Source: Escherichia phage LF82-4
Length of the DNA stretch: 64,000 bases
Sequence record: PV660448
Strand: one strand, 5' to 3'
Part shown: one piece after another, positions 9,432 to 46,375 of the stretch
How the letters are laid out: each line of letters starts with the position of its first letter
How positions within the stretch are numbered: position 1 is the stretch's first letter
Position numbers and translations under genes: made by a program
Notes under the pieces: model-generated
Database searches by the model: none
Told to the model about the DNA's origin: nothing
What the model saw: the letters and a program-made list of their open reading frames with translations, nothing else

Positions 9432-9610
9432 GGCTTAATTTCCTTCGCAATTGAACAGAAGATACTACGGTCACAAAGCATTTCACCAATTTCTGGGTAT
9501 TTGATTGAACGGTACCAAACATCCAGGCTTGAAACTCTGGTTATCTGTACTGCATTACCGTTGACAGAATAGTACTGGTCAACCTTAATTTCTTTATCTT
9601 CAATTGTCAT
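9428..9610 (-). CDS. hypothetical protein
   Basis: ORF track 9428..9730; ATG 9610 preferred (GAGGAAAACAAA ATG). Confidence 0.4.
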   Translation of the reverse strand: MTIEDKEIKVDQYYSVNGNAVQITRVSSLDVWYRSIKYPEIGEMLCDRSIFCSIAKEIKP

Positions 9611-9744
9611 TTTGTTTTCCTCTATAGCAGATGGTTTAATCTTAACATATCTATCGAGGATGTAAACTGTTTTATGAAAATATTTTTGATTTGAGAGGGG
9701 CACAAGGAGATAGTGAAGTGAAGATTCCAATGGATTATATTAGA

Positions 9745-18934: not shown

Positions 18935-19462
18935 TTATGCGTGAACCGTCTTTAAACGTTCTTCAAATTTCCGAAGAGTACTAATACGTTCTGCTTTCTG
19001 TTTTGTATAGTTTGCAATACGTTCTGAAGTGAGAGCGTATCGTTCGTTTACTGTTTCTTTCATGAAGTCAGGGATTTCACGAGAAGCTTTAATTTCATCA
19101 AACTTGTCGAGTACTGCCTGGTCTTCAGCGATTAAATTTTCGTACATCTCGATATCTTTCTTGATAAACTCGATATCTTCCTGGGTTACTTTGGATAAAC
19201 GAGACGCTTTATCCTTTTTGTACTGCTCGTTAGTTTCACGAGACCAGAATAATGTACGTTTTTTGTTAGTGTTTTTGTAGACTTCCACAATTCCAACTGA
19301 ATCGATGATAACAATCCAATTCCAGCGAGATTTGAAAATCTGACCTCCGTCCACGGTAATCTCGTTATCATAAGCAACGTCATTAAAGAACTTGCTCTGT
19401 GCTTCAGATTTAAATTTACCGTCGTTATAATTTACCAGGTTGAAAATATCTTTAGCGTTCAT
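18935..19462 (-). CDS. hypothetical protein
   Basis: 175 aa, charged helical. Confidence 0.5.
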   Translation of the reverse strand: MNAKDIFNLVNYNDGKFKSEAQSKFFNDVAYDNEITVDGGQIFKSRWNWIVIIDSVGIVEVYKNTNKKRTLFWSRETNEQYKKDKASRLSKVTQEDIEFIKKDIEMYENLIAEDQAVLDKFDEIKASREIPDFMKETVNERYALTSERIANYTKQKAERISTLRKFEERLKTVHA

Positions 19463-19488
19463 GTTTTACCTCCAGTAGTTGATAGGTC

Positions 19489-19518
19489 TATAATAACACA
19501 ACCATAGACCTTGTAAAC
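19489..19518 (-). promoter_or_regulatory. early sigma70-type promoter with flanking inverted repeat
   Basis: Minus strand GTTTACA -17- TATTAT; arms AGGTCTAT/ATAGACCT. Confidence 0.5.
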
Positions 19519-23048: not shown

Positions 23049-23393
23049 ATTATTCACCAATTAAAGTTTCAACAAAATTCACCAAATCATTCTGACGAGC
23101 ATCAACTTGCTTTTCATAGAAGTCTCCGCTATCATTTACTGCGTGATAAGCTACATCATTTAAATCAGTATCGGCTTCACGCAAGTCATGGATAAGGTCC
23201 ATCAATTTATTAGCTTGTTCACGGGTCATTTTACCATACTCGTTTCAATAAGATTCACTATGCCGTTTACCATGTTATAAGTAAACATCGGATAATTGTA
23301 TTGTACTACAACATAAGCGATAAGCAAAAGTTTCATTTTGTTCTCCGTTCGTTTTGGTAGGACTACTATAACATAGTCCTACCAAGATGTAAA

Positions 23394-23627
23394 CTACCGA
23401 TTGTGTTTTAAATGTTGATAAAGTTCTTCAACTTGTTTAGGGTCCAAAACAATTAGGTCATTTTCTTGGCGAAGATAAAGCCATCCCTTATCCCCAGGAC
23501 CATTTTTACAAAACATCGCCACCATATCATCATCTTCAGCGCTTTCAGGTAAAAGTTCAAGCACACCGTCTTCAGATTTTCCAGTATAATCGTAAAGCAT
23601 AATATCCTCACATAATCTCGTTAACAT
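23394..23627 (-). CDS. hypothetical protein
   Basis: 77 aa acidic ORF. Confidence 0.4.
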   Translation of the reverse strand: MLTRLCEDIMLYDYTGKSEDGVLELLPESAEDDDMVAMFCKNGPGDKGWLYLRQENDLIVLDPKQVEELYQHLKHNR

Positions 23628-23826
23628 ACATTTGCAATTCGGTGTGAGCGTCGGCCATCTTTTTCATAGCTCTGTTAATGTCGATGTCTCCATCTTCGCA
23701 ACCATGAGCATTTTCCCAATCAGATACCGCATTAGCGTACTCTTCAATCAAAAACATCAACTTAGAAATCTTTTCTTTACGTGTCATAACGTTCTCCTCT
23801 AGTAAGTAAGGTCTACTATAACACAA
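23608..23826 (-). CDS. hypothetical protein
   Basis: 72 aa ORF. Confidence 0.4.
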   Translation of the reverse strand: MCYSRPYLLEENVMTRKEKISKLMFLIEEYANAVSDWENAHGCEDGDIDINRAMKKMADAHTELQMYVNEIM

Positions 23827-23852
23827 CCTGAGGAGAAGTAAACTGCTAAATG

Positions 23853-27580: not shown

Positions 27581-28039
27581 CTAGATTTTAATCACTGCTT
27601 TAGAAGCTTTTCCTGGTAGTCGTTTACTGTTAATAATAGCCATTCTGCATTGAAGAGTCTTCATTTTGAATGCTGGATTTTCGCGACAAACTGTAAGTCC
27701 TAACCAAAGATTTCCATCAGTTATTTCTAAACGGCCTGGGCGATATTCGACACCTTCGACAAAATCTTCATCAACATCTGGACGTGCCGGCATTGATAAA
27801 AATTCTGCAACTTCTTTAGCATGATTTTTTACTTTATGAAATAATTCAAAAACGTAATTCTCATCTATTTCTCTCTGGATGGCACGATCTAAGAGATGTT
27901 GAGAATACTTGATATGAAAGCCTGGTAGTCCAAGAGACTTTGCAGCATCTTTTATACCGGCATTTATTTTGCGGAACTCCGTTTCAAAGATTCGACGGAG
28001 TTTATTACGGCGGATAAAAACTTCCGAATTGATAGTCAT
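27581..28039 (-). CDS. regB: endoribonuclease RegB
   Basis: Start MTINSEVFIRRNKLRR...; C-terminus LQCRMAIINSKRLPGKASKAVIK matches T4 RegB from memory. Confidence 0.9.
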   Translation of the reverse strand: MTINSEVFIRRNKLRRIFETEFRKINAGIKDAAKSLGLPGFHIKYSQHLLDRAIQREIDENYVFELFHKVKNHAKEVAEFLSMPARPDVDEDFVEGVEYRPGRLEITDGNLWLGLTVCRENPAFKMKTLQCRMAIINSKRLPGKASKAVIKI

Positions 28040-28095
28040 TTTGATTTCTCCTCTAGTTGACAAGTCTATAGTAACACAACTAGAGGAGAAGTAAA

Positions 28096-28395
28096 CTACT
28101 CTTTGAAAGGAATTAACTTTTTAACTGCTTTAGATACTTCGTCACGAACCTGATGGAAGTTCTTGAGCTGTTCAAGGCGTTGTTCGTAATACGCAATCTC
28201 ATCTTCTTCAAGACAATCGTCAGCGTCTTCTTTCAGATATGCCTTGTACTCATTAAAGAGGGCCCATAGGCGGTTCTCAAAGTCATCAAGGCTTTGAATT
28301 TTCTTGTGCTTCGGAACAAGGCCAAAAGGATTGCTTTCAGTTATGCGTCTAGATGCTTCATAATGAGTTCCAAAGCCTGATAGGATTTGAGCCAT
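28096..28395 (-). CDS. hypothetical protein
   Basis: 99 aa ORF. Confidence 0.45.
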
Positions 28396-29237: not shown

Positions 29238-29243
29238 ATAACC

Positions 29244-30088: not shown

Positions 30089-30201
30089 TTAGTTTCTCTT
30101 TTAGGTTGGGCCATTCCGTGGCGCATGAATTGTCCATTTCTGTATTTACCCCTCTAAGTAATTATGAATATACTATCACAATTCTAGGAGAAAGTAAACT
30201 G

Positions 30202-30829: not shown

Positions 30830-30835
30830 TTTTCC

Positions 30836-31249
30836 TTAGTAAATTGATTTACCATAGTATTTGTACCAAGTAGGACGTTGAGCAATTTTTTCATCTAAGC
30901 GTGCTTGACTTATCGCAACGGACGCTTCGGACGGGACATAATTATTACGAAATTCGGCAGGGATGTCGGAAATATCCTGGACTGTCGTGTCCTTGATTTT
31001 GAAACCACGTTTCAAGCATTCAGCGATTAGCTCGATTTGTCGTAAACGTAAAAATTCAAGTTTGTCGTAAAAGAATGTTACGTGACCTGTGCCTAAGATA
31101 AATGTTGGAGAGATTTTAAAATCCTTTACACGTTTACCGTTTTGGACATGTTTACGGACTGCACTAAATACGCGTGGTAATTCACGATACTCAGCCATAA
31201 GATGTTGATCGGTCAGTTCAGAAACAAGTGTTAAATTGATACGAGTCAT
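30836..31249 (-). CDS. denV: endonuclease V (pyrimidine dimer DNA glycosylase) DenV
   Basis: Start [28 protein letters not shown]; near-identical to T4 DenV from memory, 137 aa. Confidence 0.95.
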
Positions 31250-31307
31250 AATTTCCTCCAAGTAGTTGATGAATGTATAGTATCAAAACCCTTGGAGGAA
31301 GTAAACA

Positions 31308-32074: not shown

Positions 32075-32108
32075 AATACCTCCCACGTTTATAGGAGGTA
32101 TTTATTAC

Positions 32109-32567: not shown

Positions 32568-32793
32568 CTCGGTCCCATGATTTGGCCATTAATTCAGACA
32601 TAAATTCTTCAATGCGCGTTTCTTTAGATGGACTTTCACTATTAGAGACCGCAAGTTTGTAATCTGCAATAGGACGGAACAAATCAAGGTCCATATTAAG
32701 ATCGTCTTTGATTTGTTCTTCAGATACGTCTTTATCATACGTATACAAATAACTATCACCCGATTCTGATTTAACGTAAATTGCTATGCTCAT
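32557..32793 (-). CDS. hypothetical protein
   Basis: 78 aa acidic ORF. Confidence 0.4.
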   Translation of the reverse strand: MSIAIYVKSESGDSYLYTYDKDVSEEQIKDDLNMDLDLFRPIADYKLAVSNSESPSKETRIEEFMSELMAKSWDRDDE

Positions 32794-33188: not shown

Positions 33189-33269
33189 TAAGTAGGATGG
33201 ACATCCTGTCCAATCTACTGAATAGTACGAAATACCTTCATTACTTAGACCAATATGTTTTGTTAATCA

Positions 33270-33956: not shown

Positions 33957-33957
33957 A

Positions 33958-34263
33958 TTATTTTCCTCGACATTCTTTAATGAAATTTTCTAGATTGGTA
34001 GATTCAATAGCTTTTTTACGAGCTTCTGCATGTTCTTCTTCAGACAATTTACATTTATAATTAACCCAGACGTTATGGTCAAAACTAGTCGTGGCATATA
34101 ATAACAATGCTCCAACGAATAGCAAAAACGGCGATAAGAATACAAAACCAGGAACACCATCCATATCGTAAGCCTTTTGTAATACTGCAACAGAAAGGGC
34201 TGCGTAAAAAGGTGATGCAAATATTGTTAAAAGACCAATTCGGTTGGTTTCGCCTAATTTCAT
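33958..34263 (-). CDS. hypothetical membrane protein
   Basis: 101 aa, two hydrophobic helices; own early promoter upstream. Confidence 0.45.
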   Translation of the reverse strand: MKLGETNRIGLLTIFASPFYAALSVAVLQKAYDMDGVPGFVFLSPFLLFVGALLLYATTSFDHNVWVNYKCKLSEEEHAEARKKAIESTNLENFIKECRGK

Positions 34264-34292
34264 AATATTCTCCTCATGTTTTTAATAGGACT

Positions 34293-34322
34293 ACTATAAC
34301 ATAGTCCTATAATTGTGTAAAC
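34293..34322 (-). promoter_or_regulatory. early sigma70-type promoter with flanking inverted repeat
   Basis: Minus strand GTTTAC -18- TATAGT; arms ATAGGACT/AGTCCTAT around the -10. Confidence 0.5.
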
Positions 34323-34334
34323 AGTTTTGTGAAG

Positions 34335-35291: not shown

Positions 35292-35316
35292 AATATTTTC
35301 CTCGAATTTAGATTAC

Positions 35317-35556
35317 TTAAATTTCGCGACATGCGATATTATATTCATCCCAGAGGTCGTCATGTGAAGCCTCTACCAATGGAACGATTGTACCATTTAT
35401 ATCTTCATTATAAGGGCAAATTGTACAGTGCGCATCTTCGAATCGGATGCCTTTGTGTTCAGATTTTTTATAACGCATATCGAATATCTTTGCAAACTTT
35501 TCACGAGTAATAGTTTTAGCAACTACTTCGGTTCCTATACTTTCGTAATAAACCAT
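35317..35556 (-). CDS. hypothetical cysteine-containing protein
   Basis: ORF track 35317..35568; ATG 35556 with GGAG RBS. Confidence 0.4.
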   Translation of the reverse strand: MVYYESIGTEVVAKTITREKFAKIFDMRYKKSEHKGIRFEDAHCTICPYNEDINGTIVPLVEASHDDLWDEYNIACREI

Positions 35557-35618
35557 TGTTGTCTCCATTTAATTTGATAGGACTACTATAACATAGCCCT
35601 ATCTTGTTGTAAACTGTT

Positions 35619-35816
35619 TTAGCAAGAATAACTAGATGATACCCAGCCTTGAACAGTGATACTATTGTGGGATAATGAGATCGCGTCCTGGAGATTCAGA
35701 CCTGCATTATCTTCAATCCACAATGTAACTTCTTCACGCTCTTCGGTTGCAATCTGGAACAGGTTTTCTAGAGCAGCTACGGCCGTACGTACAGCACAAT
35801 CTAATTCACGAGACAT
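35619..35816 (-). CDS. small protein, paralog family member 3 (C-terminal WVSSSYSC)
   Basis: 65 aa; shares C-terminal motif with two upstream ORFs. Confidence 0.45.
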   Translation of the reverse strand: MSRELDCAVRTAVAALENLFQIATEEREEVTLWIEDNAGLNLQDAISLSHNSITVQGWVSSSYSC

Positions 35817-35825
35817 ATGATTTCC

Positions 35826-36098
35826 TTAACAAGTGTGAGAAGATGCAACCCAACCACCAGTTTCGAGGCTCAGGTTGTAGTCGTATTGGTAAACGTCAGC
35901 CCATTCGGCATAACCGTTTTTTGTACAACGTTCAAGATCGGCTTTAAGATGTCCGGGTGAATGATAGGTTCCACCCATACCATAAGCTGGGTACAAGTTG
36001 AATGTTGTGTTTTGTTTATCAGCAATTTCTTTGGCAGCCTCAATAGCTGCATAGATTTTTGCTACAGCTTCAGCCAGTTCGGTTTGTTCTTTAGACAT
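35826..36098 (-). CDS. small protein, paralog family member 2 (C-terminal GGWVASSHTC)
   Basis: 90 aa; starts MSKEQ; shares architecture with 36108..36413. Confidence 0.5.
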   Translation of the reverse strand: MSKEQTELAEAVAKIYAAIEAAKEIADKQNTTFNLYPAYGMGGTYHSPGHLKADLERCTKNGYAEWADVYQYDYNLSLETGGWVASSHTC

Positions 36099-36107
36099 AA
36101 TGATTCC

Positions 36108-36413
36108 TTAGCACAACGCAGAAGATGAAACCCAAGCACCTTCAGTAATAACGTATCCATTACCTTCACGCTTAACATCGCCGCCATTATTTTCAATTTC
36201 ATCTTTCATCCACTGGGATACGATTTCACCCTTAGGATAATAAGTACGACCGCTACCATAATCACCTACAGAAAATGATACGGCATATTGGTCTGCGATC
36301 TTTGTTGCTTCTTCTTCGATACGTTCAGCTTGATTCAGAAGTTTATAAATTGCATCTGAAGCGGATTTGGCATCATTAAACTCTGGTACTTTAATTTCAA
36401 TAATCTTACTCAT
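36108..36413 (-). CDS. small protein, paralog family member 1 (C-terminal GAWVSSSALC)
   Basis: 101 aa; starts MSKII; early-type promoter just upstream. Confidence 0.5.
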   Translation of the reverse strand: MSKIIEIKVPEFNDAKSASDAIYKLLNQAERIEEEATKIADQYAVSFSVGDYGSGRTYYPKGEIVSQWMKDEIENNGGDVKREGNGYVITEGAWVSSSALC

Positions 36414-36511
36414 TTTCTACATTCCTTAATAAAGTTTTCGATTGTTTCATTTTCACGTTTAGCTAGGAGTTCATTATAACTAATCATTTGAGAAGCGTAA
36501 ACAGCATAAAT

Positions 36512-36934
36512 TCAGTTAAGGCTTTTGCATCTTATTTCCTTAACGAATTCCATAGCTTCTTCATATTCATACTTTTTAACAGCTTCATCATACTGAGCTT
36601 GGGCTTTTGCGCACTGAACTTTCCATTCTCTTAATCGGGCTCTGTGATGACGGCCTTGGTACCAATATCCCATCCAGTTAATAGGCATTAATAAAAATGG
36701 TACAATAAGTGGTGCGACGAACATTAATGAAAATGCTGCATCAGACGATATAACTTCACTAGAATCTAAAACGGCTCCTATAATCATAAAGATTAAAAAT
36801 GCTAAAGCTAAAATAGGGCCAAATAGTACTTCATTTGGGATTAATTTACGCTTGTATTCATACGCCCAGGGCTTACTTGGCATGTACAGGGTTGGCTTTG
36901 ACATATTCTCTACATTCCATAATAAATTGCTCAA
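36512..36934 (-). CDS. hypothetical membrane protein
   Basis: 140 aa, two or three transmembrane helices followed by charged tail. Confidence 0.45.
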   Translation of the reverse strand: MSNLLWNVENMSKPTLYMPSKPWAYEYKRKLIPNEVLFGPILALAFLIFMIIGAVLDSSEVISSDAAFSLMFVAPLIVPFLLMPINWMGYWYQGRHHRARLREWKVQCAKAQAQYDEAVKKYEYEEAMEFVKEIRCKSLN

Positions 36935-37475
36935 GGATTAAATTGTTAGTGAAATTAGGACTAACAACCATAGTTTCATAAAGCGCATCAATAGCACTTA
37001 AAGCATCAACTCTCTTAAGCAAAGGCTTGCCTTCATACATAGTTTCAGAATCGACGATTAACGTAAAGTAGTATTTTTTATTATCGACTAGAACTTCTGT
37101 ATCGATATAAAACATATTAGACCTCAGAAGCTTATCTCTAAAACCATAATAATCTTCAGAGCGTTCGCTGATATATTCCCATTCAGTGTTTAAACAACAA
37201 ACAGACCACGTAGGAGCAACGAAATCAGTGAATCTAATATCATAGTCTGCAACTAGTTTAGCAATAGCTCCGATATCATGAATCATAATACCTGGGGCTA
37301 ATAAAGATTTTCTGCTATGGCTAGCCGTTTTCTCAGTGGTTTCATAAGAAGACGACCAATACCATTTACGTCCGGTTGCAACATATCGTAATGAATCAAC
37401 TAAAGACGTAGGTGGATTTACCTTATCTCGGAACTCTTCGAACATTGAGTCAATATCATTATTTTGGTTTCGCAT
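36873..37475 (-). CDS. hypothetical protein
   Basis: ORF track 36873..37496; ATG 37475 with AAAGGAG RBS. Confidence 0.5.
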   Translation of the reverse strand: MRNQNNDIDSMFEEFRDKVNPPTSLVDSLRYVATGRKWYWSSSYETTEKTASHSRKSLLAPGIMIHDIGAIAKLVADYDIRFTDFVAPTWSVCCLNTEWEYISERSEDYYGFRDKLLRSNMFYIDTEVLVDNKKYYFTLIVDSETMYEGKPLLKRVDALSAIDALYETMVVSPNFTNNLILEQFIMECREYVKANPVHAK

Positions 37476-37524
37476 GTTAACTCCTTTATTATCCAAAAGG
37501 AGGACCGGAGTCCTCCGTATTATT

Positions 37525-38118
37525 TTATTTCAAAGAGTTAATATATTCTTGTACATCAGCAGAAGTGGTTTCGACACCGGCTGGAGTGCCATTGAACGTT
37601 TCAACACGAGTCAGAGTGTCTTCGATATCAACCTTAGTCAGTGCAGCGATTTCAATCACATCATCAGCCGTAGAGATACCAAGGGCATTGGCTGCTCGAG
37701 TTTCACGAATGTATTCGAGTTTGATTGCCAGGTTCTGACGAGCATCATCAAGTTCAACCACCTTACGAGCAATTTCAATTCGCATAGCGGCATACCCATC
37801 AGCTTTTGTATTAAGTTGTTCGGCAGTTCGACGATACAGAAGACCAAGCTTAGCATGCATGGTAACATCTTGTCCTTCAGCCAGGAGCTTACGAATTTCA
37901 CGTTCCTTAGAAGCGGCTTGCTTGTTCTTTTCATTAACAAGTTCGCGAATACGTTTTTCTTCATTAATAGATTTAACAGAAGCCGTTTTTAGTTCTTTGA
38001 TTTGGGTAATCAACTTATCTGCAGCTGCGTTATACTGTTCTTCGACAGTCAGATTTTTAGCCATAGCAGTACCCAGTTTAGTGCGGATGAATTCAACAAG
38101 TTTCTTCAGTGTGTTCAT
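37525..38118 (-). CDS. hypothetical coiled-coil protein (PspA-like composition)
   Basis: ORF track 37525..38133; ATG 38118; long heptad-repeat helices; driven by the duplicated 45-nt promoter cassette. Confidence 0.5.
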
Positions 38119-38142
38119 ATTATTACCTTTCAATTGGTGGTT

Positions 38143-38187
38143 TATTATCCAACGAGAGCATTATACTCTGCTCTCAAGAGTTTGTAA
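38143..38187. repeat. 45-nt exact repeat, copy 2 (promoter cassette)
   Basis: Identical to 8200..8244. Confidence 0.9.
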
Positions 38188-38191
38188 ATTA
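38162..38191 (-). promoter_or_regulatory. early-type promoter inside duplicated 45-nt cassette (copy 2)
   Basis: Minus strand ATTTACA -17- TATAAT; identical core to copy at 8200..8244. Confidence 0.5.
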
Positions 38192-38416
38192 TTTTTTAAT
38201 CAAATTGACATAAAACTTGGCATCTTCGGGGTGCATGCCTTCGCAGTATTCTTCAACCATGAACTTCTTAACAGCTTCATAAGGACCACTCAGATTAAGC
38301 TCAGTTGTCCAGAACTTGGAATCTTGTACTGAATCGATACGAACTTCAGGGTGACGGTTGCGAATAACTTCTTCTGTGTATTCATAATCAACGACATCAA
38401 TACTAACTTTAGCCAT
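38189..38416 (-). CDS. hypothetical protein
   Basis: 75 aa acidic ORF. Confidence 0.4.
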   Translation of the reverse strand: MAKVSIDVVDYEYTEEVIRNRHPEVRIDSVQDSKFWTTELNLSGPYEAVKKFMVEEYCEGMHPEDAKFYVNLIKK

Positions 38417-38645
38417 TTTGTTTTCCTCTTGATTTGATGTGATTACTATAACATAAACTTACTTAGATGTAAACTATTTCAACATCACCTTTAGCTGCTT
38501 TATAACCTTCGGCCCAAGATACAACAGAGTTTTTATCTGAGGATTCAAATTCAGGCATTGGACTTTCACCAATATTCACACAGTATGTTTCTTCATTTTC
38601 ATCGAACCAAATAATTAAAGTAGTCATTTTGTTTACTCCACTGTA

Positions 38646-38666
38646 GTTGATAAGTCTATAGTATCA
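38646..38666. repeat. 21-nt repeat, copy 1
   Basis: GTTGATAAGTCTATAGTATCA identical at 38646..38666 and 39018..39038, both in promoter regions. Confidence 0.85.
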
Positions 38667-38695
38667 CCATCCTTGGTGCTTGTACATCATTATTT

Positions 38696-39001
38696 TTAAT
38701 TTTTCCAACTTAACAACTTGTAGTGTCCTTCATTCGTACGAGGTTTATCCCAATAGATATTAATAAACGATGTCTCACCAATAGAAGTCGGCGGTTTTTT
38801 CTCTACAGTAAGACCTTCGCTTTCTAACCACTCAATGACTTTTGTAGATAAAGCTAAAGAAACATGTAATGGACAACGACAGTATTTTTCACCTTTAGCT
38901 GAAGACTCGTACATCATTTCTAAAATACGTTTTTGCACTTTTTTAAAAATAGTTTCAGCAGATTCTTCAGATTTTTTATTCAGTTCAGTGTAAAGACTCA
39001 T
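38696..39001 (-). CDS. hypothetical protein
   Basis: 101 aa; CRCP motif; GGAG RBS. Confidence 0.45.
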   Translation of the reverse strand: MSLYTELNKKSEESAETIFKKVQKRILEMMYESSAKGEKYCRCPLHVSLALSTKVIEWLESEGLTVEKKPPTSIGETSFINIYWDKPRTNEGHYKLLSWKN

Positions 39002-39017
39002 AATATTCTCCTCTGCG

Positions 39018-39038
39018 GTTGATAAGTCTATAGTATCA
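39018..39038. repeat. 21-nt repeat, copy 2
   Basis: Identical to 38646..38666. Confidence 0.85.
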
Positions 39039-39087
39039 TGTCCTTAGAAGAAGTAAACAACTTTTTAAACTTTTTCTGCCCTAGATA

Positions 39088-39117
39088 CCAAAAAGCCCCA
39101 ACCTTTCGGAAGGGGCT
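39088..39117 (-). terminator. intrinsic terminator (repeated 24-nt hairpin, copy 3)
   Basis: Identical 24-nt hairpin at 3-prime end of tRNA-like RNA region, U tract follows. Confidence 0.6.
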
Positions 39118-39119
39118 AA

Positions 39120-39430
39120 GCCTTGCGGCAACCTTGTCGGGGTTTCCACCTACTAGGTAAGTGTTTGTACGAAACGCCGGGATTCGAACCCGGTTATTAA
39201 GCAGTTGACGCTACTCAATATTTTTAAAAGGCCATATCTCGACCATATCCGAACGTTCCGTCAAAAACGCTACTCGGCTTACGGCAAAGATATTTCCTCG
39301 AATCGATAATTCTGTGCGCCGTTTCTGCTGTGATGTAAGGGGATATTAACGAATCATAAAGATTTATTAAGACCAGTCCTTACTCAGGGAACATCAGTCC
39401 GACGACTTACCGGTAGCGACCCGGCTTCTT
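39120..39430 (-). ncRNA. non-coding, tRNA-like RNA region (possible remnant tRNA or T4 species-1/2-type stable RNA)
   Basis: About 310 nt with no ORF; minus strand contains canonical T-arm CCGGGTTCGAATCCCGG followed by CGTTTCG that pairs with upstream CGGAACG, but the intervening 58 nt do not fold into a standard D/anticodon arm; followed by a hairpin terminator. Confidence 0.3.
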
Positions 39431-39773
39431 ATTTTGGCATATCATCAATTTGCTCTCGACGCCGACGCCATAGATTAATCGCTTCATAAACACATTCAGC
39501 ATTTGGTATATGGCGACAATAGTATAGTGATTCGCGTTTCTGGAACCGATGTTGCAATGGGATTTCGTTTAAAAGGTCTTTACGGTCAAAGTATTCAAAA
39601 CTAGTTAACCCGGAACGGTTTTTAAGAAACTTCCAATGGCCAAATTCATTTTGGAAATAAACGTAATCAGCGTGTTGATATAATGAATTAATCAACCGGT
39701 CGGAAATAACTGTATCCTGTTCGTTAAAATAAAACGTTAAATCATGAACTACCAGATAAATATTGCCTTTCAT
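39429..39773 (-). CDS. hypothetical protein
   Basis: 114 aa ORF between segB-like gene and RNA region. Confidence 0.45.
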   Translation of the reverse strand: MKGNIYLVVHDLTFYFNEQDTVISDRLINSLYQHADYVYFQNEFGHWKFLKNRSGLTSFEYFDRKDLLNEIPLQHRFQKRESLYYCRHIPNAECVYEAINLWRRRREQIDDMPK

Positions 39774-39780
39774 ATTTTCC

Positions 39781-40449
39781 TCACTTAAATTTTAGTTTAT
39801 AGCCTTTAATCCAACCTTCCGGAATAGGATCGGTTTTCTTAATTTTCTTAGATTTCTTTTCTTCTAATGAATGAATCCACATAGTACCAAACTGGGAATT
39901 TTTCTCGCCTTGTTGGTGTTTGTTCCTGGCGTGGGTATCTTTCATTTTAGCAATAGTTTCGGAAGTATGATTTTTATTTAAAAACGACTTAGTGCTAGAG
40001 AATTTTTCTCTGTATTCAGGTAAAGTCCACAGATGCTTTAATTTCTCTGAACCCATTTTACGATATTTTTCTTGAAGCACTTCATCAGAATCAAATCTCT
40101 CTTTAAAAGCTTTGGCTCCTTTAATAGAGGCTTCTTTCTTTTTATAATTAAATTCGTAAGTATTTAAATGGTCCCAACCACCTTCGCCACCAAGTTTTAA
40201 ATTATATACGTCAGAACGATTCAAAAATTCTTCGTTTACGATATTTTTCTCGGCTTCAAACATCTGCTCTTTAGTGTCAAAGAATTCTAAAATTTCTTTA
40301 TTAAAATTTTCTATACCATACTTGTCTTGGGCTCTTTTTAATAATTTACCAGAACCCATATATCCATCATCTAAATTTTCGGTAGAATGAGCGCCTATAT
40401 AGATTTTATTATTAATTTTATTTGTTATTTTATAAGTGTAATGGAACAT
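39781..40449 (-). CDS. segB: GIY-YIG homing endonuclease (SegB-like)
   Basis: N-terminus HYTYKITNKINNKIYIGAHS is a canonical GIY-YIG motif; 222 aa; sits between tRNA genes as T4 segB does. Confidence 0.75.
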   Translation of the reverse strand: MFHYTYKITNKINNKIYIGAHSTENLDDGYMGSGKLLKRAQDKYGIENFNKEILEFFDTKEQMFEAEKNIVNEEFLNRSDVYNLKLGGEGGWDHLNTYEFNYKKKEASIKGAKAFKERFDSDEVLQEKYRKMGSEKLKHLWTLPEYREKFSSTKSFLNKNHTSETIAKMKDTHARNKHQQGEKNSQFGTMWIHSLEEKKSKKIKKTDPIPEGWIKGYKLKFK

Positions 40450-40490
40450 AAATATCTCCTATTTCTAAGAGTATTTATGTTCCCAAAATA

Positions 40491-40562
40491 TGGCCCTGGC
40501 TGGTTTCGATCCAGCTACCTATCAGTTATGAGCTGACAGCTCTCCCATTGAGCTACAGGGCC
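40491..40562 (-). tRNA. tRNA with CAU anticodon (elongator Met or lysidine-modified Ile)
   Basis: Minus strand 72 nt folds as a cloverleaf: acceptor GGCCCTG/CAGGGCC, D stem GCTC/GAGC, anticodon stem GTCAG/CTGAT with loop CTCATAA, T stem GCTGG/CCAGC with loop ATCGAAA, discriminator A; no encoded CCA. Confidence 0.85.
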
Positions 40563-40656
40563 TTAATAACTTTCTATTATGAAAGGCACTTTAGAGCACC
40601 TTTGGTAATAGAGGGTAGATTAATAATAACACATAATTCTTAAAGCAAATTACGTT

Positions 40657-40947
40657 TTACCATACCATATTAATGTAATTATACTCAATACATTCAAGAT
40701 TTAAAGGATTCTTGAAAATATCATATTCAAGAGGACCTTTTTCTGTTTCAATAAAGAAATCAAAGTTCACACTATTAAATTTGCGGTCTTCCCAAAGTAA
40801 TTTAACCTGTGAAGATGAACGGTCGACGTAAACCTTTTCAACTTCAAAGTGGGTCAAAATACCATAGTAATCGACTAGTGCTTTAGCTGCACGTTGATCG
40901 CTTTCATATCCATTCTCAACGGATTTTACCTTAGCATAAAGAATCAT
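40657..40947 (-). CDS. hypothetical protein
   Basis: 96 aa ORF. Confidence 0.45.
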   Translation of the reverse strand: MILYAKVKSVENGYESDQRAAKALVDYYGILTHFEVEKVYVDRSSSQVKLLWEDRKFNSVNFDFFIETEKGPLEYDIFKNPLNLECIEYNYINMVW

Positions 40948-41324
40948 GAATGTTCCACCACTTCAAAGGTGTGAGCATCAACAATATGATACCAGTCAAA
41001 ATTTTCTTCTGCGTTTTTATAAATTTCGCGAAGAGCCTCAACAGTTTTTCCTGTAGCAACAAGGTCGTCAATACCACCAAGAGGATAACAGTCATAACCA
41101 GCAAACAGAAGGAAATTAATAGTTTCTGTAGGTTCTGGATGCAAAACACCATTATCATCTACCACTTCAAAGAAAGTGTAAGAAGGAGTACAAGTTTTAA
41201 TCCAAGCCCATGCTTGAGCTGCTGAATCAAATGGTCTGCGTATCAAACGACAATCAGGGTCTTTAGAAGGATTTGCTTCAAAATCCGCATATACGTGATA
41301 TTTCATTTTACTCACCTTTTGCAA
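40944..41324 (-). CDS. hypothetical protein
   Basis: 126 aa acidic ORF. Confidence 0.45.
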   Translation of the reverse strand: MQKVSKMKYHVYADFEANPSKDPDCRLIRRPFDSAAQAWAWIKTCTPSYTFFEVVDDNGVLHPEPTETINFLLFAGYDCYPLGGIDDLVATGKTVEALREIYKNAEENFDWYHIVDAHTFEVVEHS

Positions 41325-41493
41325 TTTTATCCATAACGATAGCGATTAAGCCGATTAGAAATGCTACTACCAATGAGATAGAATTTTCTGTTGTTGTCAG
41401 TAGTCCACAAATGAATCCTACAAACATCGAAAAACTAAAAGCCATTGAAGCAATTACTACAGCAACATTACGAATCAGTTCAGCGCGTTTCAT
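41308..41493 (-). CDS. hypothetical small membrane protein
   Basis: 61 aa with two hydrophobic helices. Confidence 0.4.
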   Translation of the reverse strand: MKRAELIRNVAVVIASMAFSFSMFVGFICGLLTTTENSISLVVAFLIGLIAIVMDKIAKGE

Positions 41494-41562
41494 TTTATTC
41501 TCCTCAGTAGTTGATAGGGTAATAGTATCACTACCCTATCTAAAAGTAAACGGTTTTATAAA

Positions 41563-41871
41563 CTATTTTATTCCGCGTGATGCAATCGTATTCTGCCGTT
41601 TAACACCAGTTTGTTTAAAGTCATGACTGTCGATTTGATCGGTGCGAGCAACTCCGAATGATGATTTAATCTTAGCTTTAGATCCTTTAGTTATAGAAAT
41701 AAACATCTCGGAAGACCCTTTCTTAAAGTCTGATGCAGATACTTCAACACCGTTCTTAGCAAGTGACCTCAGAATTGCATCCGCGTACTCATCATCAAGA
41801 CTCGCTTGAGTATTAATAACAAATGTCTTTGGTGCAGCCGCTTCATTGATAAATTCTTTATAGGTTTTCAT
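41563..41871 (-). CDS. internal protein-like (capsid-targeting-sequence bearing)
   Basis: N-terminus MKTYKEFINEA; own early promoter-stem-loop upstream. Confidence 0.6.
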   Translation of the reverse strand: MKTYKEFINEAAAPKTFVINTQASLDDEYADAILRSLAKNGVEVSASDFKKGSSEMFISITKGSKAKIKSSFGVARTDQIDSHDFKQTGVKRQNTIASRGIK

Positions 41872-41901
41872 TTTATTTTCCTAATTAATTTTGATAGGAC
41901 T

Positions 41902-41931
41902 ACTATAACATAGTCCTATTAGCATGTAAAC
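41902..41931 (-). promoter_or_regulatory. early sigma70-type promoter with flanking inverted repeat
   Basis: Minus strand GTTTAC -18- TATAGT with TG extended -10; arms ATAGGACT/AGTCCTAT. Confidence 0.5.
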
Positions 41932-41934
41932 TAC

Positions 41935-42222
41935 TTACAGAAGGGTTTTTGCAATAATTTTAAGCTGAGCTACAGAAATATGCTTAGCTTTAAACAGTGC
42001 AGTCTCTTCAGCCGGAGAGATAACAATAGTAGCGCCATCTTTCTTAGCAGACCATCCATCCCCTAAGTAAACAGTACCTTTTACTTCTTCGCCATCAACC
42101 AGACTAATCATTGGTTTACCCTCACGTCCTTTATTTGCTTTAATAACTTCGGAAGTAAGGGTCGCTTCGGTCAGAGTAGAAACGTTAGCATCAGGTGATA
42201 TAAATTCTTTATAGGTTTTCAT
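41935..42222 (-). CDS. internal protein-like (capsid-targeting-sequence bearing, IPI position)
   Basis: N-terminus MKTYKEFISPD...LTEA; 95 aa; located just upstream of 57B/57A as ipI is in T4. Confidence 0.6.
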   Translation of the reverse strand: MKTYKEFISPDANVSTLTEATLTSEVIKANKGREGKPMISLVDGEEVKGTVYLGDGWSAKKDGATIVISPAEETALFKAKHISVAQLKIIAKTLL

Positions 42223-42299
42223 TTTATTTCCTTGAGGTTGTTTATTTTATAGGATGATAGTAACACACCATCATCCTTATGTAAACTGTTTTGTGAAAA

Positions 42300-42985
<686 letters not shown>

Positions 42986-42989
42986 TTTA

Positions 42990-43724
42990 TTACCTTAAGA
43001 TTTTTTCAATTTTAGAATAAAGCTCTTCTAACGAGCCGTCGTTTGTAATAACTAAGTCGCCTTCTTCAATAGGCAACCCAGCTTCTGTAATATGTTTATC
43101 AGTGGATTCCGTACCAGAGCGAACCACATGAATAACTGTAGCACCCATCGCTCTAGCGGTTTCCATTTCATGGACTTGTCGTGTATCGGTCACAACGTAG
43201 TAATCGAAATCACTTCCAATATAATCCATATAGTTTAATGCAAAAAGCTTAACCCAATACATACGGTCAAATAAATTAACGACAACATCCGTACCGAGGG
43301 CTTGCATAAGACGGCGGATCGACCATGTGTCGTTGATATTATTTATAGCTTCACGCAGGGCTTCATATGGTTTAATATCTAGATATGAATATCCACCTTC
43401 TAACGATGATAATACTTTAACATTATTAATTGGTAAATATTGACTTTGCAAATAAATTAGCGCTTCTTCCAATAATTCAATAACATCCAACTTATTGAGA
43501 TTTAATGGTGTTTCACGGTCGTATCCAATGCCTTCAAAGTATTCGTATTTCAACTCTGTGAATACATCAGGATTTTCAGCATGTCTACGTCCCCAGGCTA
43601 TTGCTAGAGCGTCTTTAATTGGATATGCTAATTGGTATTTTACGGATTTAAAGTTTGAATTGATGTAATCAGCAGTAGTGTCTTTACCACTACGTTTGAT
43701 GCCACTTAAAAAGATTAGCTCCAT
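42990..43724 (-). CDS. 1: deoxynucleoside monophosphate kinase gp1
   Basis: MELIFLSGIKRSGKDTTADY P-loop; 244 aa; ...MGATVIHVVR...GLPIEEGDLVITNDGSLEEL matches T4 gp1. Confidence 0.9.
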   Translation of the reverse strand: MELIFLSGIKRSGKDTTADYINSNFKSVKYQLAYPIKDALAIAWGRRHAENPDVFTELKYEYFEGIGYDRETPLNLNKLDVIELLEEALIYLQSQYLPINNVKVLSSLEGGYSYLDIKPYEALREAINNINDTWSIRRLMQALGTDVVVNLFDRMYWVKLFALNYMDYIGSDFDYYVVTDTRQVHEMETARAMGATVIHVVRSGTESTDKHITEAGLPIEEGDLVITNDGSLEELYSKIEKILR

Positions 43725-43777
43725 AGGTTTTCCTCATATAATTTATAAGTGATTATAACATACGGAGCTAGAAGCGA

Positions 43778-44362
43778 TTAACGCAAGGAAGGGTGTCTAG
43801 AAATGGATTTAGATTCGGCTGCTTGACGAGGCTGTTGAGATACAATGACTTCGCCGTCTTTTTCTATCGTCATATACGCGTAGTGAATAGTTGCTACGCA
43901 CGTAACGGCAGGATCAGAATCTTCAGTGTAACTAAATTCAATTTCGCTCAAATCAGAAATCCATGGTTTATAGAAATTTGCCGTCAAAACGACTTCAGTC
44001 TTATTGTTGTTTAAAATGTGCAAAGTAACAAACTCAGGACCATCGGCATGGGCTGTATTATGACCGGTTATATAGTTATTAGTGCTGAGCATCCATTTAT
44101 ACATGTTCATCCAGGACGTCATGTCTTCATCAACTATAAATCGTACAATAAAAGGGTCATATTCAAATGTAGTGCCTGCGCGCATTGCACGTCCTAACCC
44201 CATTGTGCCTGTCACAGTTTCAACAACAGGAATTCTCACACCTGGCAATGGTGCCGTTTGGGCATTGAGCACAAAACCTGAAGTTCGTGTACTATCTGGG
44301 ATATCCACAACAAAGTTTGTTATATTTGTTTGGTTAAAAATCTGTCTCGTTGGACGAGTCAT
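43778..44362 (-). CDS. 3: tail tube terminator / sheath stabiliser gp3
   Basis: 194 aa from ATG 44362 (GAGGTG RBS); position between genes 1 and 2 as in T4. Confidence 0.65.
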   Translation of the reverse strand: MTRPTRQIFNQTNITNFVVDIPDSTRTSGFVLNAQTAPLPGVRIPVVETVTGTMGLGRAMRAGTTFEYDPFIVRFIVDEDMTSWMNMYKWMLSTNNYITGHNTAHADGPEFVTLHILNNNKTEVVLTANFYKPWISDLSEIEFSYTEDSDPAVTCVATIHYAYMTIEKDGEVIVSQQPRQAAESKSISRHPSLR

Positions 44363-44464
44363 AAGCACCTCAAAAACGCTTTAATAAAAATACAGTATAA
44401 TGGTTTTAGGTCTCTTCCATTAATCCGGTTCAACAGAATATCAGAAGAACGGAAGAGAATAGAA

Positions 44465-45286
44465 TTAAGATTTCCAAACAGTATTCGCAGAGAAACGTTT
44501 TCCTTTTGACATAAATTGCTGAGTAGGTAACATGATTATGTTAGCCCAGTCTTTAGGAGCGATTTCTGTTATTGTTCCTCTAATGTGGCCTGGCAGGTAT
44601 GCTTTAATCATTTTGTCAGCACCTTGAAATCCTTTCACCTTGCTCCAGTCTATCTTCAACTTTGTGTTATTAGTAATAGTAGTTGTGCTAGCATATTGCT
44701 TCAGCAATTCTTCAAGAAACTGTTGACGTGCTTTAGGTGGGATATAGTGCAAGTTTAACCCGTACATCAAATTATGTTTACCTAATCCTAAATAAATAAT
44801 CAAAGGATATCGGTCCCAGTATGGCAGAGTATCTTTATGTTTAGCATCATACACGTAAGTATAAATTTTGCCTGGTGTAGGCTTGACTACTTTGTGACCT
44901 TTTACACTTTTCTTAATTGTTTCAACAAACCACTTAGATGATTTGTTGTTTACTGCTGCGCCTTCATTTCTAATCTTTTCTCGTATTGAACTGCGAAACG
45001 AGTTTATCATCAGAAGTTGTCGTTCTTGCTTATTGAGTTTATTTTTAGGTTTGGATTCAAGCGTTTCAATTTTCTGTGCAGTCTTAATAGATGATGCATA
45101 TCTAGACATTGCAGATGTAAACGACGAGTATTTTATTCCTTTTGATTCTGCAAATGCTTTTGCAGTGATTCCTTTCTCTTTAGCTTTCTTGTATTCTAAT
45201 CCTATCTCAATCCATTTTCTTTCATTCATAGACTGAGCAATCTTAGGGGCTTGTACGCCTTCAGATATAATTTGGAATATGCTCAT
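44465..45286 (-). CDS. 2: DNA end protector protein gp2
   Basis: 273 aa basic protein; synteny 3-2-4 and size match T4 gp2. Confidence 0.8.
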
Positions 45287-45288
45287 AA

Positions 45289-45738
45289 TTACCCCTTGTA
45301 TCCGAGTTTCCTAAGTCCGTCTTCGGTTAGAACTCGAAATTTTATATTTCTCTTTTCTGCGACAGCAGAAGCAGCTTTCCATTTGTCGCAGTTCACAGAC
45401 CAGGTGTATATTTCATTCATATAACGTTTCTTTGCTGCGGTCGTAAGATTTGCAGGCTTAATAGGTGGTTGAGTTTCTTTCTTTGGTTTTATTTCTACAA
45501 AGAACTCTTGACCTGATGCATCTTTCATCCATATGTCCATATAGTATCGACGTTTCTTACCTTCAGCATTACAAAAATATGGAATTACGGCTGTTTCACT
45601 ACCCCATGCAATAATTTCCGGATTTTTATCCAACCATTCGAAAAAGAATTTTTCCCAGTTTGAACGATACGTTATTTTGGTATGGTCTCCACGGTATTTT
45701 TTTAAATTTTTTGGGACCCATTTACCAGAGTAGGCCAT
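45289..45738 (-). CDS. 4: head completion protein gp4
   Basis: [18 protein letters not shown]...; 149 aa; matches T4 gp4 from memory; late promoter TATAAATA 27 nt upstream. Confidence 0.9.
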
Positions 45739-45749
45739 GTTGTCCTCCT

Positions 45750-45757
45750 TATAAATA
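45750..45757 (+). promoter_or_regulatory. late promoter TATAAATA for genes 53 onward
   Basis: Exact T4 late consensus TATAAATA 43 nt upstream of gene 53 start. Confidence 0.6.
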
Positions 45758-45764
45758 GTATTAT

Positions 45765-45772
45765 TATTTATA
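45765..45772 (-). promoter_or_regulatory. late promoter TATAAATA for genes 4-2-3
   Basis: Minus strand TATAAATA 27 nt upstream of gene 4 ATG; divergent from the gene 53 late promoter. Confidence 0.6.
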
Positions 45773-45799
45773 CCAATTTAATATTGGAAGGAGACTATT

Positions 45800-46375
45800 T
45801 TGTTATTTACATTCTTCGACCCAATAGGATATAGTGCTAAAACAGTTGATAAGAATGCACCTACTATTCCTATGACAGACATATTTCGTAACTATAAAGA
45901 GTACTTTAAACGTGTTGCTGCCAATTATAGATTACGTTCTTATTACATTAAAGGCTCTCCACGTCCTGAAGAACTAGCAAACATAATTTATGGCAACCCT
46001 CAATTATACTGGGTCCTTTTGATGTGTAATGATAACTATGATCCGTATTATGGTTGGATTACATCTCAGGAAGCAGCGTATCAAGCGTCTATTCAGAAAT
46101 ATGCAAATGCTGGCGGAGACCAAATTCTTTACCATATTAACGAGAATCGTGAGAAATTTTACAATTTAGTTTCATACCCAGACGAGCCTTTAGTGTGGTA
46201 TGATAAAGGTGATGAAGCTCGTAAGTATCCGCAATATAAAGGACCTTTAGCTGCAGTAGATACTTATGAAGCGGCAATATTAGATAATGAAAAACTTCGT
46301 AAAATAAAAATTGTTGCAAAAGAAGATATAAACTCGTTTATTACTGATTTGATTCGTGAGATGGAGATTGCATAA
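45800..46375 (+). CDS. 53: baseplate wedge protein gp53
   Basis: MLFTFFDPIGYSAKTV...; TTG start 6 nt after GGAAGGAG RBS; late promoter upstream. Confidence 0.85.
   Translation: MLFTFFDPIGYSAKTVDKNAPTIPMTDIFRNYKEYFKRVAANYRLRSYYIKGSPRPEELANIIYGNPQLYWVLLMCNDNYDPYYGWITSQEAAYQASIQKYANAGGDQILYHINENREKFYNLVSYPDEPLVWYDKGDEARKYPQYKGPLAAVDTYEAAILDNEKLRKIKIVAKEDINSFITDLIREMEIA

Follow-up and report, generated by a model that had tools for sequence, protein, structure and literature searches.

Within a stretch of 64,000 nucleotides from Escherichia phage LF82-4 (sequence record PV660448), referred to below as the window, a gene for an internal head protein (MKTYKEFI...) is preceded on the minus strand by an early promoter that is interlaced with an inverted repeat. 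This promoter cassette occupies 41869..41931 and, read on the minus strand as GTTTAC atgcta ATAGGACTA tgt TATAGT AGTCCTAT caaaattaattAGGAaaataaaATG, has its -35 element GTTTAC at 41926-41931, the 5' arm of the repeat (ATAGGACTA) at 41911-41919, the -10 element TATAGT at 41902-41907, the 3' arm (TAGTCCTAT), which begins at the last T of the -10, at 41894-41902, and the ATG at 41871. Folded as RNA the hairpin has a predicted stability of -12.9 kcal/mol (z = -4.3), and none of 200 shuffles was as stable. An initial annotation of the window had claimed that many minus-strand early promoters carry an inverted repeat in or around the -10, that the arms differ between sites but remain complementary, and that comparable stem-loops are reported from some T4-type phages as mobile regulatory cassettes.

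The segment 40500-43500 has matches in Escherichia phage LF82-1 (99.4%) and in Shigella phage Shf125875 (96.8%), the latter of which is classified in Mosigvirus (RB69-like T-even phages); judged by this similarity, the window is that of a Mosigvirus, an RB69-like T-even phage. It extends from gene 44 to the baseplate and neck genes and is syntenic with T4 at ~70-80% identity. Because the genes up to ~45.5 kb lie on the minus strand, this is the early strand.

The strict pattern GTTTAC-N17-20-TAnnnT has 22 minus-strand matches in the window against 2 on the plus strand; some four of these 22 probably fall within genes and are false positives. Spacers are 17-18 nt long and TGn precedes many of the -10 boxes. 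The sigma-70-like early promoter in its T-even form, TTTACW-N17-TAYWAT, which belongs to the description of the promoter-early stem-loops (PeSLs) of T4-type phages, is likewise present. A complete cassette consists of an A/T-rich upstream region, the -35 GTTTAC, a spacer of 17-18 nt, a TGn/TAnnnT -10, a short leader, a Shine-Dalgarno (SD) sequence and a start codon. The 29 nt upstream have an A+T fraction of 0.66-0.83 in 12 of the 13 hairpin cassettes and 0.55 at the promoter at 23843 (window 0.63), and the SD and ATG of these cassettes lie 45-65 nt beyond the G of GTTTAC, as in PeSL cassettes. Stem-loops overlapping the promoter, also a PeSL feature, were found at 9-13 of the 22 window promoters, with predicted stabilities of -12.7 to -21.6 kcal/mol.

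Complementary arms in early promoters

A perfect inverted repeat of at least 8 bp is present in 9 of the 22 promoter segments, as against 1.9% of 2149 same-strand control windows (binomial p ~1e-10). The annotated association of minus-strand early promoters with repeats around the -10 is borne out. Folding of the 56 nt that follow GTTTAC yielded strong hairpins at 42286, 41931, 41551, 35614, 34322, 23394, 19518, 31306 and 28096, and weaker ones at 23843, 9667, 39058 and 30199. Among ten window hairpins compared with dinucleotide shuffles, nine had z-scores of -4.2 to -7.1, and for those nine 0 of 200 shuffles were as stable.

We then shuffled the columns of the -10-anchored alignment, a procedure that keeps any palindromic consensus and destroys the matching within individual promoters. 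The mean minimum free energy (MFE) of the shuffles was -7.04 +/- 0.52 against -11.66 observed (z = -8.9), and 0.63 repeats of at least 8 bp were expected (at most 3 in 300 shuffles) against the 9 observed, so that the repeats are far commoner at promoters than in shuffled controls. Since four of the nine repeats carry one 24-nt core, TAGGACTATGTTATAGTAGTCCTA, which has 4 matches in the window with 0 expected, the window holds about seven independent arm types.

A wider set was assembled by using the RegB, DenV, Tk and gp1 proteins as probes to collect the early regions of ~50 T-even-like contigs from IMG/VR, to which T4 and the window were added. It has 424 pattern matches on the early strand against 47 on the other, representing 311 distinct sequences, or 225 once near-duplicates are collapsed. 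Helices of at least 8 Watson-Crick pairs occur in 41% of the 225 promoters and 5.6% of 3000 control windows, and those of at least 10 pairs in 23% and 0.6%, respectively. The spacer pairs with its own downstream segment at a mean of -9.55 kcal/mol, compared with -6.19 +/- 0.15 for foreign segments (z = -22), and the cognate partner ranks in the top 5% for 78 of the 225 promoters, where ~11 are expected. We also prepared an ungapped alignment of 116 of the 171 spacer-18 promoters, near-duplicates and obvious non-promoter matches having been dropped by eye, which makes this count illustrative rather than fully unbiased. In its commonest register (columns 13-21 with 30-38) 54.7% of the cells are paired, a level that 0 of 500 shuffles reach (51.4 +/- 1.0%), while slid registers give 33-44%. 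Covariation in the fixed register is 0.275 against 0.225 +/- 0.012 (0 of 500 shuffles).

The same is seen between orthologous promoters. The regB stem is kept with different arms in the window (TTCTCCTCTAGTTG/CAACTAGAGGAGAA), in T4 (TTTTCCTCTTGAC/GTTAAGAGGAGAA, including two G.U pairs) and in further orthologues (TTTCTCCTCTTTAT/ATAAAGAGGAGAAA; TCTCCTGTAAG/CTTACAGGAGA; ATCTCCTTTTAGT/ACTAAAAGGAGAT; ATCCTCATTTG/CAAATGAGGAT), and the denV orthologues likewise keep the stem with differing arms; arm pairs among these regB and denV orthologues include CTAGTTG/CAACTAG, CTTGAC/GTTAAG (with G.U), CTTTAT/ATAAAG and TGTAAG/CTTACA. As the arms differ and yet stay complementary across orthologues, they co-vary and the structure is under selection. 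The corresponding claim of the initial annotation therefore holds in the window and in the T-even orthologues alike, with the column-shuffle and cognate-pairing scores given above. RNAalifold recovered no consensus structure from 19 regB-upstream sequences because the stems lie in different registers, which is why per-sequence and cognate/non-cognate tests were used. In about half of the cassettes two freely variable promoter segments have been made complementary to each other, namely the spacer and either the stretch from the end of the -10 to ~+3 or the SD region.

Hairpin layouts and cassettes of the window

The 92 strong helices of the wider set fall into three layouts. In class A (62 helices) the 5' arm lies in the spacer, the -10 sits in the loop and the 3' arm extends from the last bases of the -10 to about +3; the cassette at 41869..41931 is of this class. 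In class B (22 helices) the 5' arm comes right after the -35 as an anti-SD sequence (CTCC) and the 3' arm is the SD region. In class C (8 helices) the -10/+1 region is the 5' arm and pairs with the SD plus AUG (seven of the eight). Across the set the positional profile has a 5'-arm peak at +5..+20 and a 3'-arm peak at +30..+50. The initial annotation, which placed the repeats around the -10, captured the first layout and missed the second, in which the 3' arm is the Shine-Dalgarno sequence, even though the regB site that it quoted (~28046-28090) belongs there. In 87 of the 92 helices the loop or the 3' arm contains the predicted +1, or the +1 lies past the 3' arm. Since in classes A and B the 5' arm is situated past the -35 and ahead of the -10, the promoter's own transcript would lack it, and consequently the hairpin would form only in RNA reading through from an upstream promoter.

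CTCC occurs in the spacer of 13% of promoters as against 1.9% of random 14-mers, and a spacer:SD duplex of -10 kcal/mol or below is available to 13.5% of promoters, 5.2% with the spacer reversed and 1.0% with the 17 nt upstream. Pairing of the SD or AUG in the long transcript is confined to classes B and C, which account for 30 of the 92 strong helices and, among the 18 gene-proximal promoters of the window, for 6; it is not seen in class A, including the cassette at 41931. The predicted probability that the SD is unpaired goes from 0.00 in read-through RNA to 0.61 in the own transcript at regB, from 0.00 to 0.41 at denV, from 0.00 to 0.53 at 23843, from 0.04 to 0.67 at 9667, from 0.12 to 0.80 at 30199 and from 0.04 to 0.31 at 39058. 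At most class A cassettes SD pairing is little changed; 34322 goes from 0.21 to 0.61.

The two clearest class B cassettes, both on the minus strand, belong to regB and denV. That of regB (28037..28096; ATG 28039; fold -21.6, z -4.9) has its 5' arm TTCTCCTCTAGTTG at 28077-28090 right after the -35, the -10 at 28068-28073 in the loop, and a 3' arm, CAACTAGAGGAGAA at 28046-28059, that includes the SD. In that of denV (31247..31306; ATG 31249; fold -17.4, z -4.9) the 5' arm TTCCTCCAAG at 31291-31300 and the 3' arm CTTGGAGGAA at 31253-31262, which is the SD, enclose the -10 at 31277-31282. Four further minus-strand cassettes are of the same kind in weaker form: 23785..23843 (5' arm TTCTCCTC 23830-23837; 3' arm GAGGAGAA 23792-23799; ATG 23787; z only -1.5), the weak or imperfect 9608..9667 (CCTCgATAG ... 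CTATaGAGG; ATG 9610), 38999..39058 (TTCTTCT ... AGAGGAG with G.U pairs; ATG 39001), and the class B-like 30135..30199 (TTTCTC ... GAGGGG; ATG 30137).

Orthologues of both genes add variants to this picture. In denV orthologues L030, L038, L039, L040, L044, L023 and L029 the layout ~60 nt before position 1501 is of class C, with the -10/+1 region pairing with the SD plus AUG (e.g. ATGATGTCTTCC...GGAGGACATCAT), so that by predicted pairing denV is masked in three different ways across genera. In regB orthologues L013, L014 and L017, ~60 nt before position 1501, two partners are available to the 5' segment TCTCCTGTAAGAT, a proximal ATCTTAC, which is class A-like, and the distal CTTACAGGAGA, the SD; the CTTAC repeat in these sequences suggests two alternative structures.

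Besides the cassette at 41931, six minus-strand cassettes of the window are of class A. The one upstream of the second internal protein gene (42220..42286; -35 42281-42286; ATG 42222) has 5' arm AGGATGAT at 42270-42277, -10 TACTAT at 42257-42262 and 3' arm ATCATCCT at 42251-42258, and its hairpin reaches 12 bp with a G.U extension (-15.4 kcal/mol, z -4.5). The cassette of the 61-aa trna.4 orthologue (41491..41551; ATG 41493) has 5' arm GATAGGGTA at 41532-41540, -10 at 41522-41527 and 3' arm TACCCTATC at 41513-41521 (fold -16.4, z -5.6); its T4 counterpart has the same 3' arm but takes its partner 5' arm from 6 nt further upstream. Three others share the core of the 41931 cassette. At 34261..34322 (5' arm 34302-34310; -10 34293-34298; 3' arm 34285-34293; ATG 34263; fold -12.7, z -4.3) the 24-nt core is identical; at 35566..35614 (hairpin 35576-35603; -10 35585-35590; fold -16.0, z -5.9) a copy of the TAGGACTA core has one A>G change that leads to a G.U pair; and at 23334..23394 (5' arm 23374-23385; -10 23365-23370; 3' arm 23354-23365; ATG 23336; fold -20.6, z -7.1) the outer A-T pair has become G-C and the stem is lengthened (TTGGTAGGACTA / TAGTCCTACCAA). 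The remaining one, 19460..19518 (ATG 19462; fold -13.4, z -4.2), uses different arms, AGGTCTAT at 19504-19511 and ATAGACCT at 19484-19491, around -10 TATTAT at 19490-19495, and the T4 orthologue of its promoter has a class B, SD-pairing stem in its place. The arm sequences quoted in the initial annotation were all correct; its positions were exact at 34285-34310 and exact or near-exact at 42251-42277 and 35576-35603, while three sets were off by 9-31 nt, the hairpin put near 23326-23351 lying ~30 nt away at 23354-23385, that at 41505-41530 being 41513-41540 and that at 28041-28076 being 28046-28090.

Three small minus-strand genes of the window encode the capsid-targeting leader of T-even internal proteins (IPs): 41563-41871, 41935-42222 and ~30202-30504. 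The leader reads MKTYKEFI twice and MKTYQEFI once, and the adjacent two, missing from the 99% relative L142, constitute the classical polymorphic IP locus. The cassettes at 41869-41931 and 42220-42286 precede IP genes that have promoter, SD and MKTY(K/Q)EF leader in common. Repoila et al. 1994, as cited in PMC4122927, reportedly dealt with the conserved flanks and the polymorphism of this T-even locus and not with the hairpin. In T4 (L002, locus 35800 and 36499; 65799 and 66498 in the record) the ipII promoter contains a 14-bp perfect inverted repeat, TCCTAGAATTGTGA / TCACAATTCTAGGA, and the ipIII promoter has an 8-bp repeat, AATTGTGA / TCACAATT, from the same core.

Among the early promoters more generally, TCA(C/T)AAA(A/G)NN recurs right before GTTTAC in many, though not all, including 42286, 34322, 16857 and 9667 and several of T4; this motif is presumably part of an extended T-even early promoter or UP-element consensus. 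Hinton 2010 noted an extra, unexplained consensus in T4 early promoters (PMC2988021), and the 57 early promoters that Nolan et al. 2006 predicted for RB69 were described as having C at -3 to -1, hairpins not being mentioned (PMC1524935). The RefSeq T4 record has no annotated promoter features. Two good promoter matches lie outside the strict pattern: ATTTACA-N17-TATAAT at 38160-38188 (minus) upstream of the ATG at 38118, and TTTACA-N18-TATAGT at 45806-45835 (plus), at the divergent junction before the baseplate genes.

Terminators, nucleic-acid level and exchange

Hairpins in and ahead of the early promoters differ in what follows them. The 10 nt after perfect helices across the -10 (n=70) are A-rich, with a mean of 5.0 A and 2.1 T and at least 5 T in 3%; those after hairpins lying wholly upstream of the -35 (n=25) are T-rich, with at least 5 T in 56%, and these upstream hairpins are ordinary intrinsic terminators. 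A terminator scan of 26000-45900, a span that covers nine of the thirteen embedded hairpins, called no embedded hairpin. Their A-rich tails argue against canonical termination by the embedded hairpins, which do not show the combination of a G/C-rich hairpin with a following U-rich tract that defines intrinsic terminators.

The two kinds of hairpin nearly exclude each other. Of 28 promoters whose 80 nt of upstream sequence include a terminator-like hairpin followed by a T tail, 0 have an embedded helix, as against 67 of 197 without such a hairpin (p = 3e-5); an MFE of -12 kcal/mol or below is reached by 2 of 33 promoters with an upstream terminator and 102 of 192 without (p = 1e-7), the mean MFE being -6.3 (about background) with and -12.5 without. 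The distance to the preceding gene differs as well. The stop codon of the upstream open reading frame lies at a median of 5 nt before GTTTAC at hairpin promoters and 23 nt at hairpin-less ones, and falls within -15..+1 at 84-92% of the former versus 42% of the latter. As this stop is so close to the -35, the beginning of the 5' arm would be covered by a ribosome that terminates there, and translational coupling thus offers an alternative to simple masking.

The PeSL papers assign to such stem-loops the role of terminators or attenuators for RNA polymerase arriving from upstream. This reading agrees with the near mutual exclusion from canonical upstream terminators, as expected for elements with the same role, and with the report that one G/C-rich RB49 stem-loop cut downstream lacZ about as much as the rrnB T1 terminator (PMC2839356). 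For the window we consider it rather unlikely, given the A-rich tails, the rarity of tails with at least 5 T and the negative scan; moreover, the embedded stems are of 8-12 bp, A/T-rich and with loops of 6-30 nt, unlike the G/C-rich RB49 stems, and simple termination is difficult to square with class B stems ending in the SD.

Ordinary terminators in the early region include three identical 27-nt hairpins GCCCCTTCCGAAAGGTTGGGGCTTTTT (23855-23881, 24478-24504 and 39090-39116, minus), where 0 are expected by chance; two of the three copies stand directly upstream of the early promoters 23843 and 39058, and the repeat represents a second kind of repeated regulatory cassette. A G/C-rich palindromic hairpin, GGAGGACTCCGGTCCTCC at 37499-37516 (both strands), has T-rich tails both ways and looks like a bidirectional terminator inside the early region.

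Mismatches inside the helices bear on whether it is RNA or DNA that folds. Internal G.T mismatches outnumber A.C by 25:4 in strong helices, compared with 185:111 in control helices (Fisher p = 0.013); since every G.T becomes an A.C on the opposite strand, this asymmetry points to the sense strand as the one that folds, most simply in the form of RNA. Between close relatives substitutions lie in loops or outside the arms, and the sole change within an arm, C to T, gives a G.U pair. A role in DNA, with the repeats serving as operators for a dimeric phage or host protein or as cruciforms that modulate or shut off early promoters, might be read from their overlap with the -10, a typical repressor site, from the fourfold recurrence of one 24-nt palindromic core in the window, and from the description of T4 early-promoter shut-off as not fully understood (PMC3014915). 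We nevertheless hold it to be quite improbable: the arms vary widely between promoters and orthologues and display no common half-site as palindromic operators would, the bias towards G.T means that only one strand folds well, class B loops of 17-30 nt are unsuited to cruciform extrusion, and the repeat is missing from about half of equally good promoters. The presence of the hairpin further depends on the upstream terminator and on the proximity of the stop codon, a dependence that would not be expected of a promoter-intrinsic role in DNA.

Comparison with relatives yields indirect signs of cassette exchange. The 24-nt core stands at four loci with unrelated flanks and recurs in its exact form in only seven IMG/VR stretches. 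In L142, with flanks 99% identical, both internal-protein genes are missing and a different hairpin cassette takes their place, the replaced segment being bounded exactly by GTTTAC at 42281 and the SD at 41503. A T4-like ipI promoter has flanks identical to those of the 41931 promoter and entirely different arms that are still complementary, and immediately upstream of the -35 at 39058 LF82-1 carries an additional gene of 710 bp. Two further indels lie away from cassettes, and the events are too few for statistics; the pattern fits the proposal of the PeSL papers that cassettes are exchanged where promoter and SD motifs are conserved. The annotated link to published mobile regulatory cassettes, the PeSLs, was right, and mobility itself is supported only indirectly, by the core at four unrelated loci and by the L142 replacement from -35 to SD.

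Relative to LF82-1 the window has indels at 39066-39085, 39789-40491, 40650-40659 and 33147-33245. Two open reading frames, of 710 bp and 512 bp, are extra in LF82-1; ~700 nt with similarity to the T4 segB/tRNA region are present in the window only, and 19 nt stand in place of a 98-nt stretch. A scan of the whole window at Rfam gathering thresholds returned only one tRNA (40491-40562, minus) and no known RNA family at the hairpins.

Another reading makes the complementarity a functionless by-product: quasipalindromes would stay perfect through hairpin-directed, templated mutation, or through gene conversion among promoter copies in the course of the recombination-dependent replication of T4-type phages. 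Templated correction of quasipalindromes is classical in T4, one core does exist in four copies with unrelated flanks, and whole hairpin patches have been exchanged between relatives inside conserved flanks. We deem this explanation very improbable, as it does not account for the consistent position across the -10 in many genera with unrelated arms, the frequency with which the 3' arm is the SD, the avoidance of promoters behind a terminator, or the preference for G.U over A.C. Chance, or a side effect of a palindromic consensus (TAGG ... CCTA), suggested by the partly complementary purine-rich AGG in the spacer and CCTATC near +1 of T-even promoters, is refuted and of negligible probability, since column shuffling keeps the consensus and still leaves z = -8.9, cognate segments surpass non-cognate ones at z = -22, and 0 of 200 dinucleotide shuffles match any of the nine hairpins.

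Known systems and the role of the hairpins

The window hairpins are PeSL cassettes of a kind already known, to which the window adds members in a further genus. PeSLs were described from RB49/phi1 (Arbiol et al. 2010, PMC2839356) and extended to the pairs PST/T4 and nt-1/KVP40 (Comeau et al. 2014, PMC4122927); Mosigvirus (RB69-like) is not among the pairs analysed. The common elements are the intergenic A/T-rich region, sigma-70-type early promoter, stem-loop, SD and start codon, and the stem-loop is in both cases placed between the -35 and -10 or over the -10, which is the most frequent arrangement according to PMC2839356. The T4/PST pair was given the promoter consensus TTTACW-N17-TAYWAT and the stem type AGNA-loop-TCNT (PMC4122927), which the AGGA...TCCT stems of the window fit. 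Like PeSLs, the cassettes of the window cluster in the variable early regions; at the IP locus and at 39058 they adjoin a replacement or an indel between close relatives, the events being few. Recombination between cassettes to give excised mini-circles also belongs to the description of PeSLs.

The window's embedded stems differ in lacking the U tract and the G/C richness of the RB49 'effective terminators'. The available portions of the PeSL papers do not set embedded hairpins apart from true terminators upstream of the -35, nor do they note that the SD is the 3' arm in a third of the stems. Similarly, the accessible papers (older T4 work lay mostly outside the search) make no mention of the missing U tracts, the mutual exclusion from terminators, the relation to stop-codon distance, the bias towards G.U or the SD-pairing subclass.

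Another parallel is found in the T4 genes e, soc, 49 and I-TevI, where hairpins that sequester the ribosome-binding site contain an internal promoter (Uzan & Miller 2010, PMC3014915). In these genes too the SD and/or AUG pairs with an upstream segment in long transcripts, and the hairpin encloses the promoter, so that translation proceeds from the short transcript, which has no 5' arm; the geometry of class B and class C cassettes is exactly this, with start sites predicted from the -10. The internal promoter of the T4 genes is a late one (TATAAATA), with the logic 'silent early, expressed late', whereas that of the window cassettes is an early sigma-70 promoter, whose logic would be 'expressed from immediate-early transcript, masked on read-through RNA'; and class A cassettes, unlike the T4 hairpins, leave the SD untouched. 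With morons, which consist of a gene with its own promoter and terminator, the cassettes share a position flanking small accessory genes and a hairpin at the gene boundary; they differ from morons and intrinsic terminators in having no U tract and in placing the hairpin within the promoter rather than after the gene, and the flanked genes are not set apart by G+C content.

Taken together, these observations lead us to favor, as the more probable explanation, PeSL-type cassettes whose hairpin acts on read-through RNA, masking the SD in about a third of cases and otherwise standing in for a terminator as a boundary or 3'-protecting element. Most likely, then, the hairpin acts on RNA arriving from upstream rather than on the promoter. 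It would serve as a boundary element where the upstream gene ends right at the -35 and leaves no room for a separate terminator; being needed only when RNA arrives from upstream, it could be tucked into the variable segments of the promoter. In class B (regB, denV and others) it would mask the ribosome-binding site on read-through RNA, so that the gene would be translated from its own immediate-early transcript and poorly from read-through RNA, or, in a variant of this scheme, from the latter only if the stem is melted by a ribosome that terminates on the gene upstream. In class A, which has no U tract, it might be a weak attenuator, or it might protect the 3' end of the upstream cistron once the A-rich leader or the SD has been cleaved. 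As a secondary consequence, the conserved -35 and SD/start flanks may provide short homologies for the exchange of whole cassettes.

Several points weigh against this explanation. The start sites are predictions from the position of the -10; a literature search for mapped T4 start sites or earlier accounts of SD masking at early promoters returned nothing relevant, much of the older T4 literature being outside its reach. Two window promoters, 23843 and 39058, combine an upstream terminator (23855-23881 and 39090-39116, respectively) with a class B stem. The G.U excess rests on 29 mismatches, to which a strand-biased mutation spectrum could contribute, and related promoters are non-independent data points even after near-duplicates are collapsed. 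The class A role is a guess in which attenuator and 3'-protector are not told apart. Finally, over 94 transferred gene starts SD pairing was equal for promoter-proximal and other genes (0.55 vs 0.57); in the absence of a mean difference, masking is to be seen as the property of a subset and not as general. The idea that every cassette masks its SD was dropped on this ground.

To a large part these findings rediscover PeSLs; the comparative analysis sharpens their likely role, as alternatives to terminators at tight gene junctions rather than canonical terminators, a sizeable subset of which is predicted to conceal, in read-through RNA, the ribosome-binding sites of regB, denV and other genes. 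Tentatively, and with less confidence than for the window itself, promoter-embedded hairpins might be a general means by which T-even phages distinguish transcripts by origin, so that translation or protection of one early gene would differ between RNA from its own promoter and read-through RNA. If so, the embedded hairpin would replace a terminator wherever gene packing leaves no room, and the principle known from the few late promoters of e, soc, 49 and I-TevI would be extended: some 10-15% of early promoters would follow it by SD masking, or ~40% if every embedded hairpin is counted. This could also bear on the old distinction between immediate-early and delayed-early genes. The narrower picture of their role, if it holds, would supply a simple sequence rule for early genes that are 'immediate-early only' at the level of translation and a testable approach to the way in which T4-type phages keep dozens of small accessory genes insulated, with relevance to the annotation and engineering of therapeutic T-even phages.

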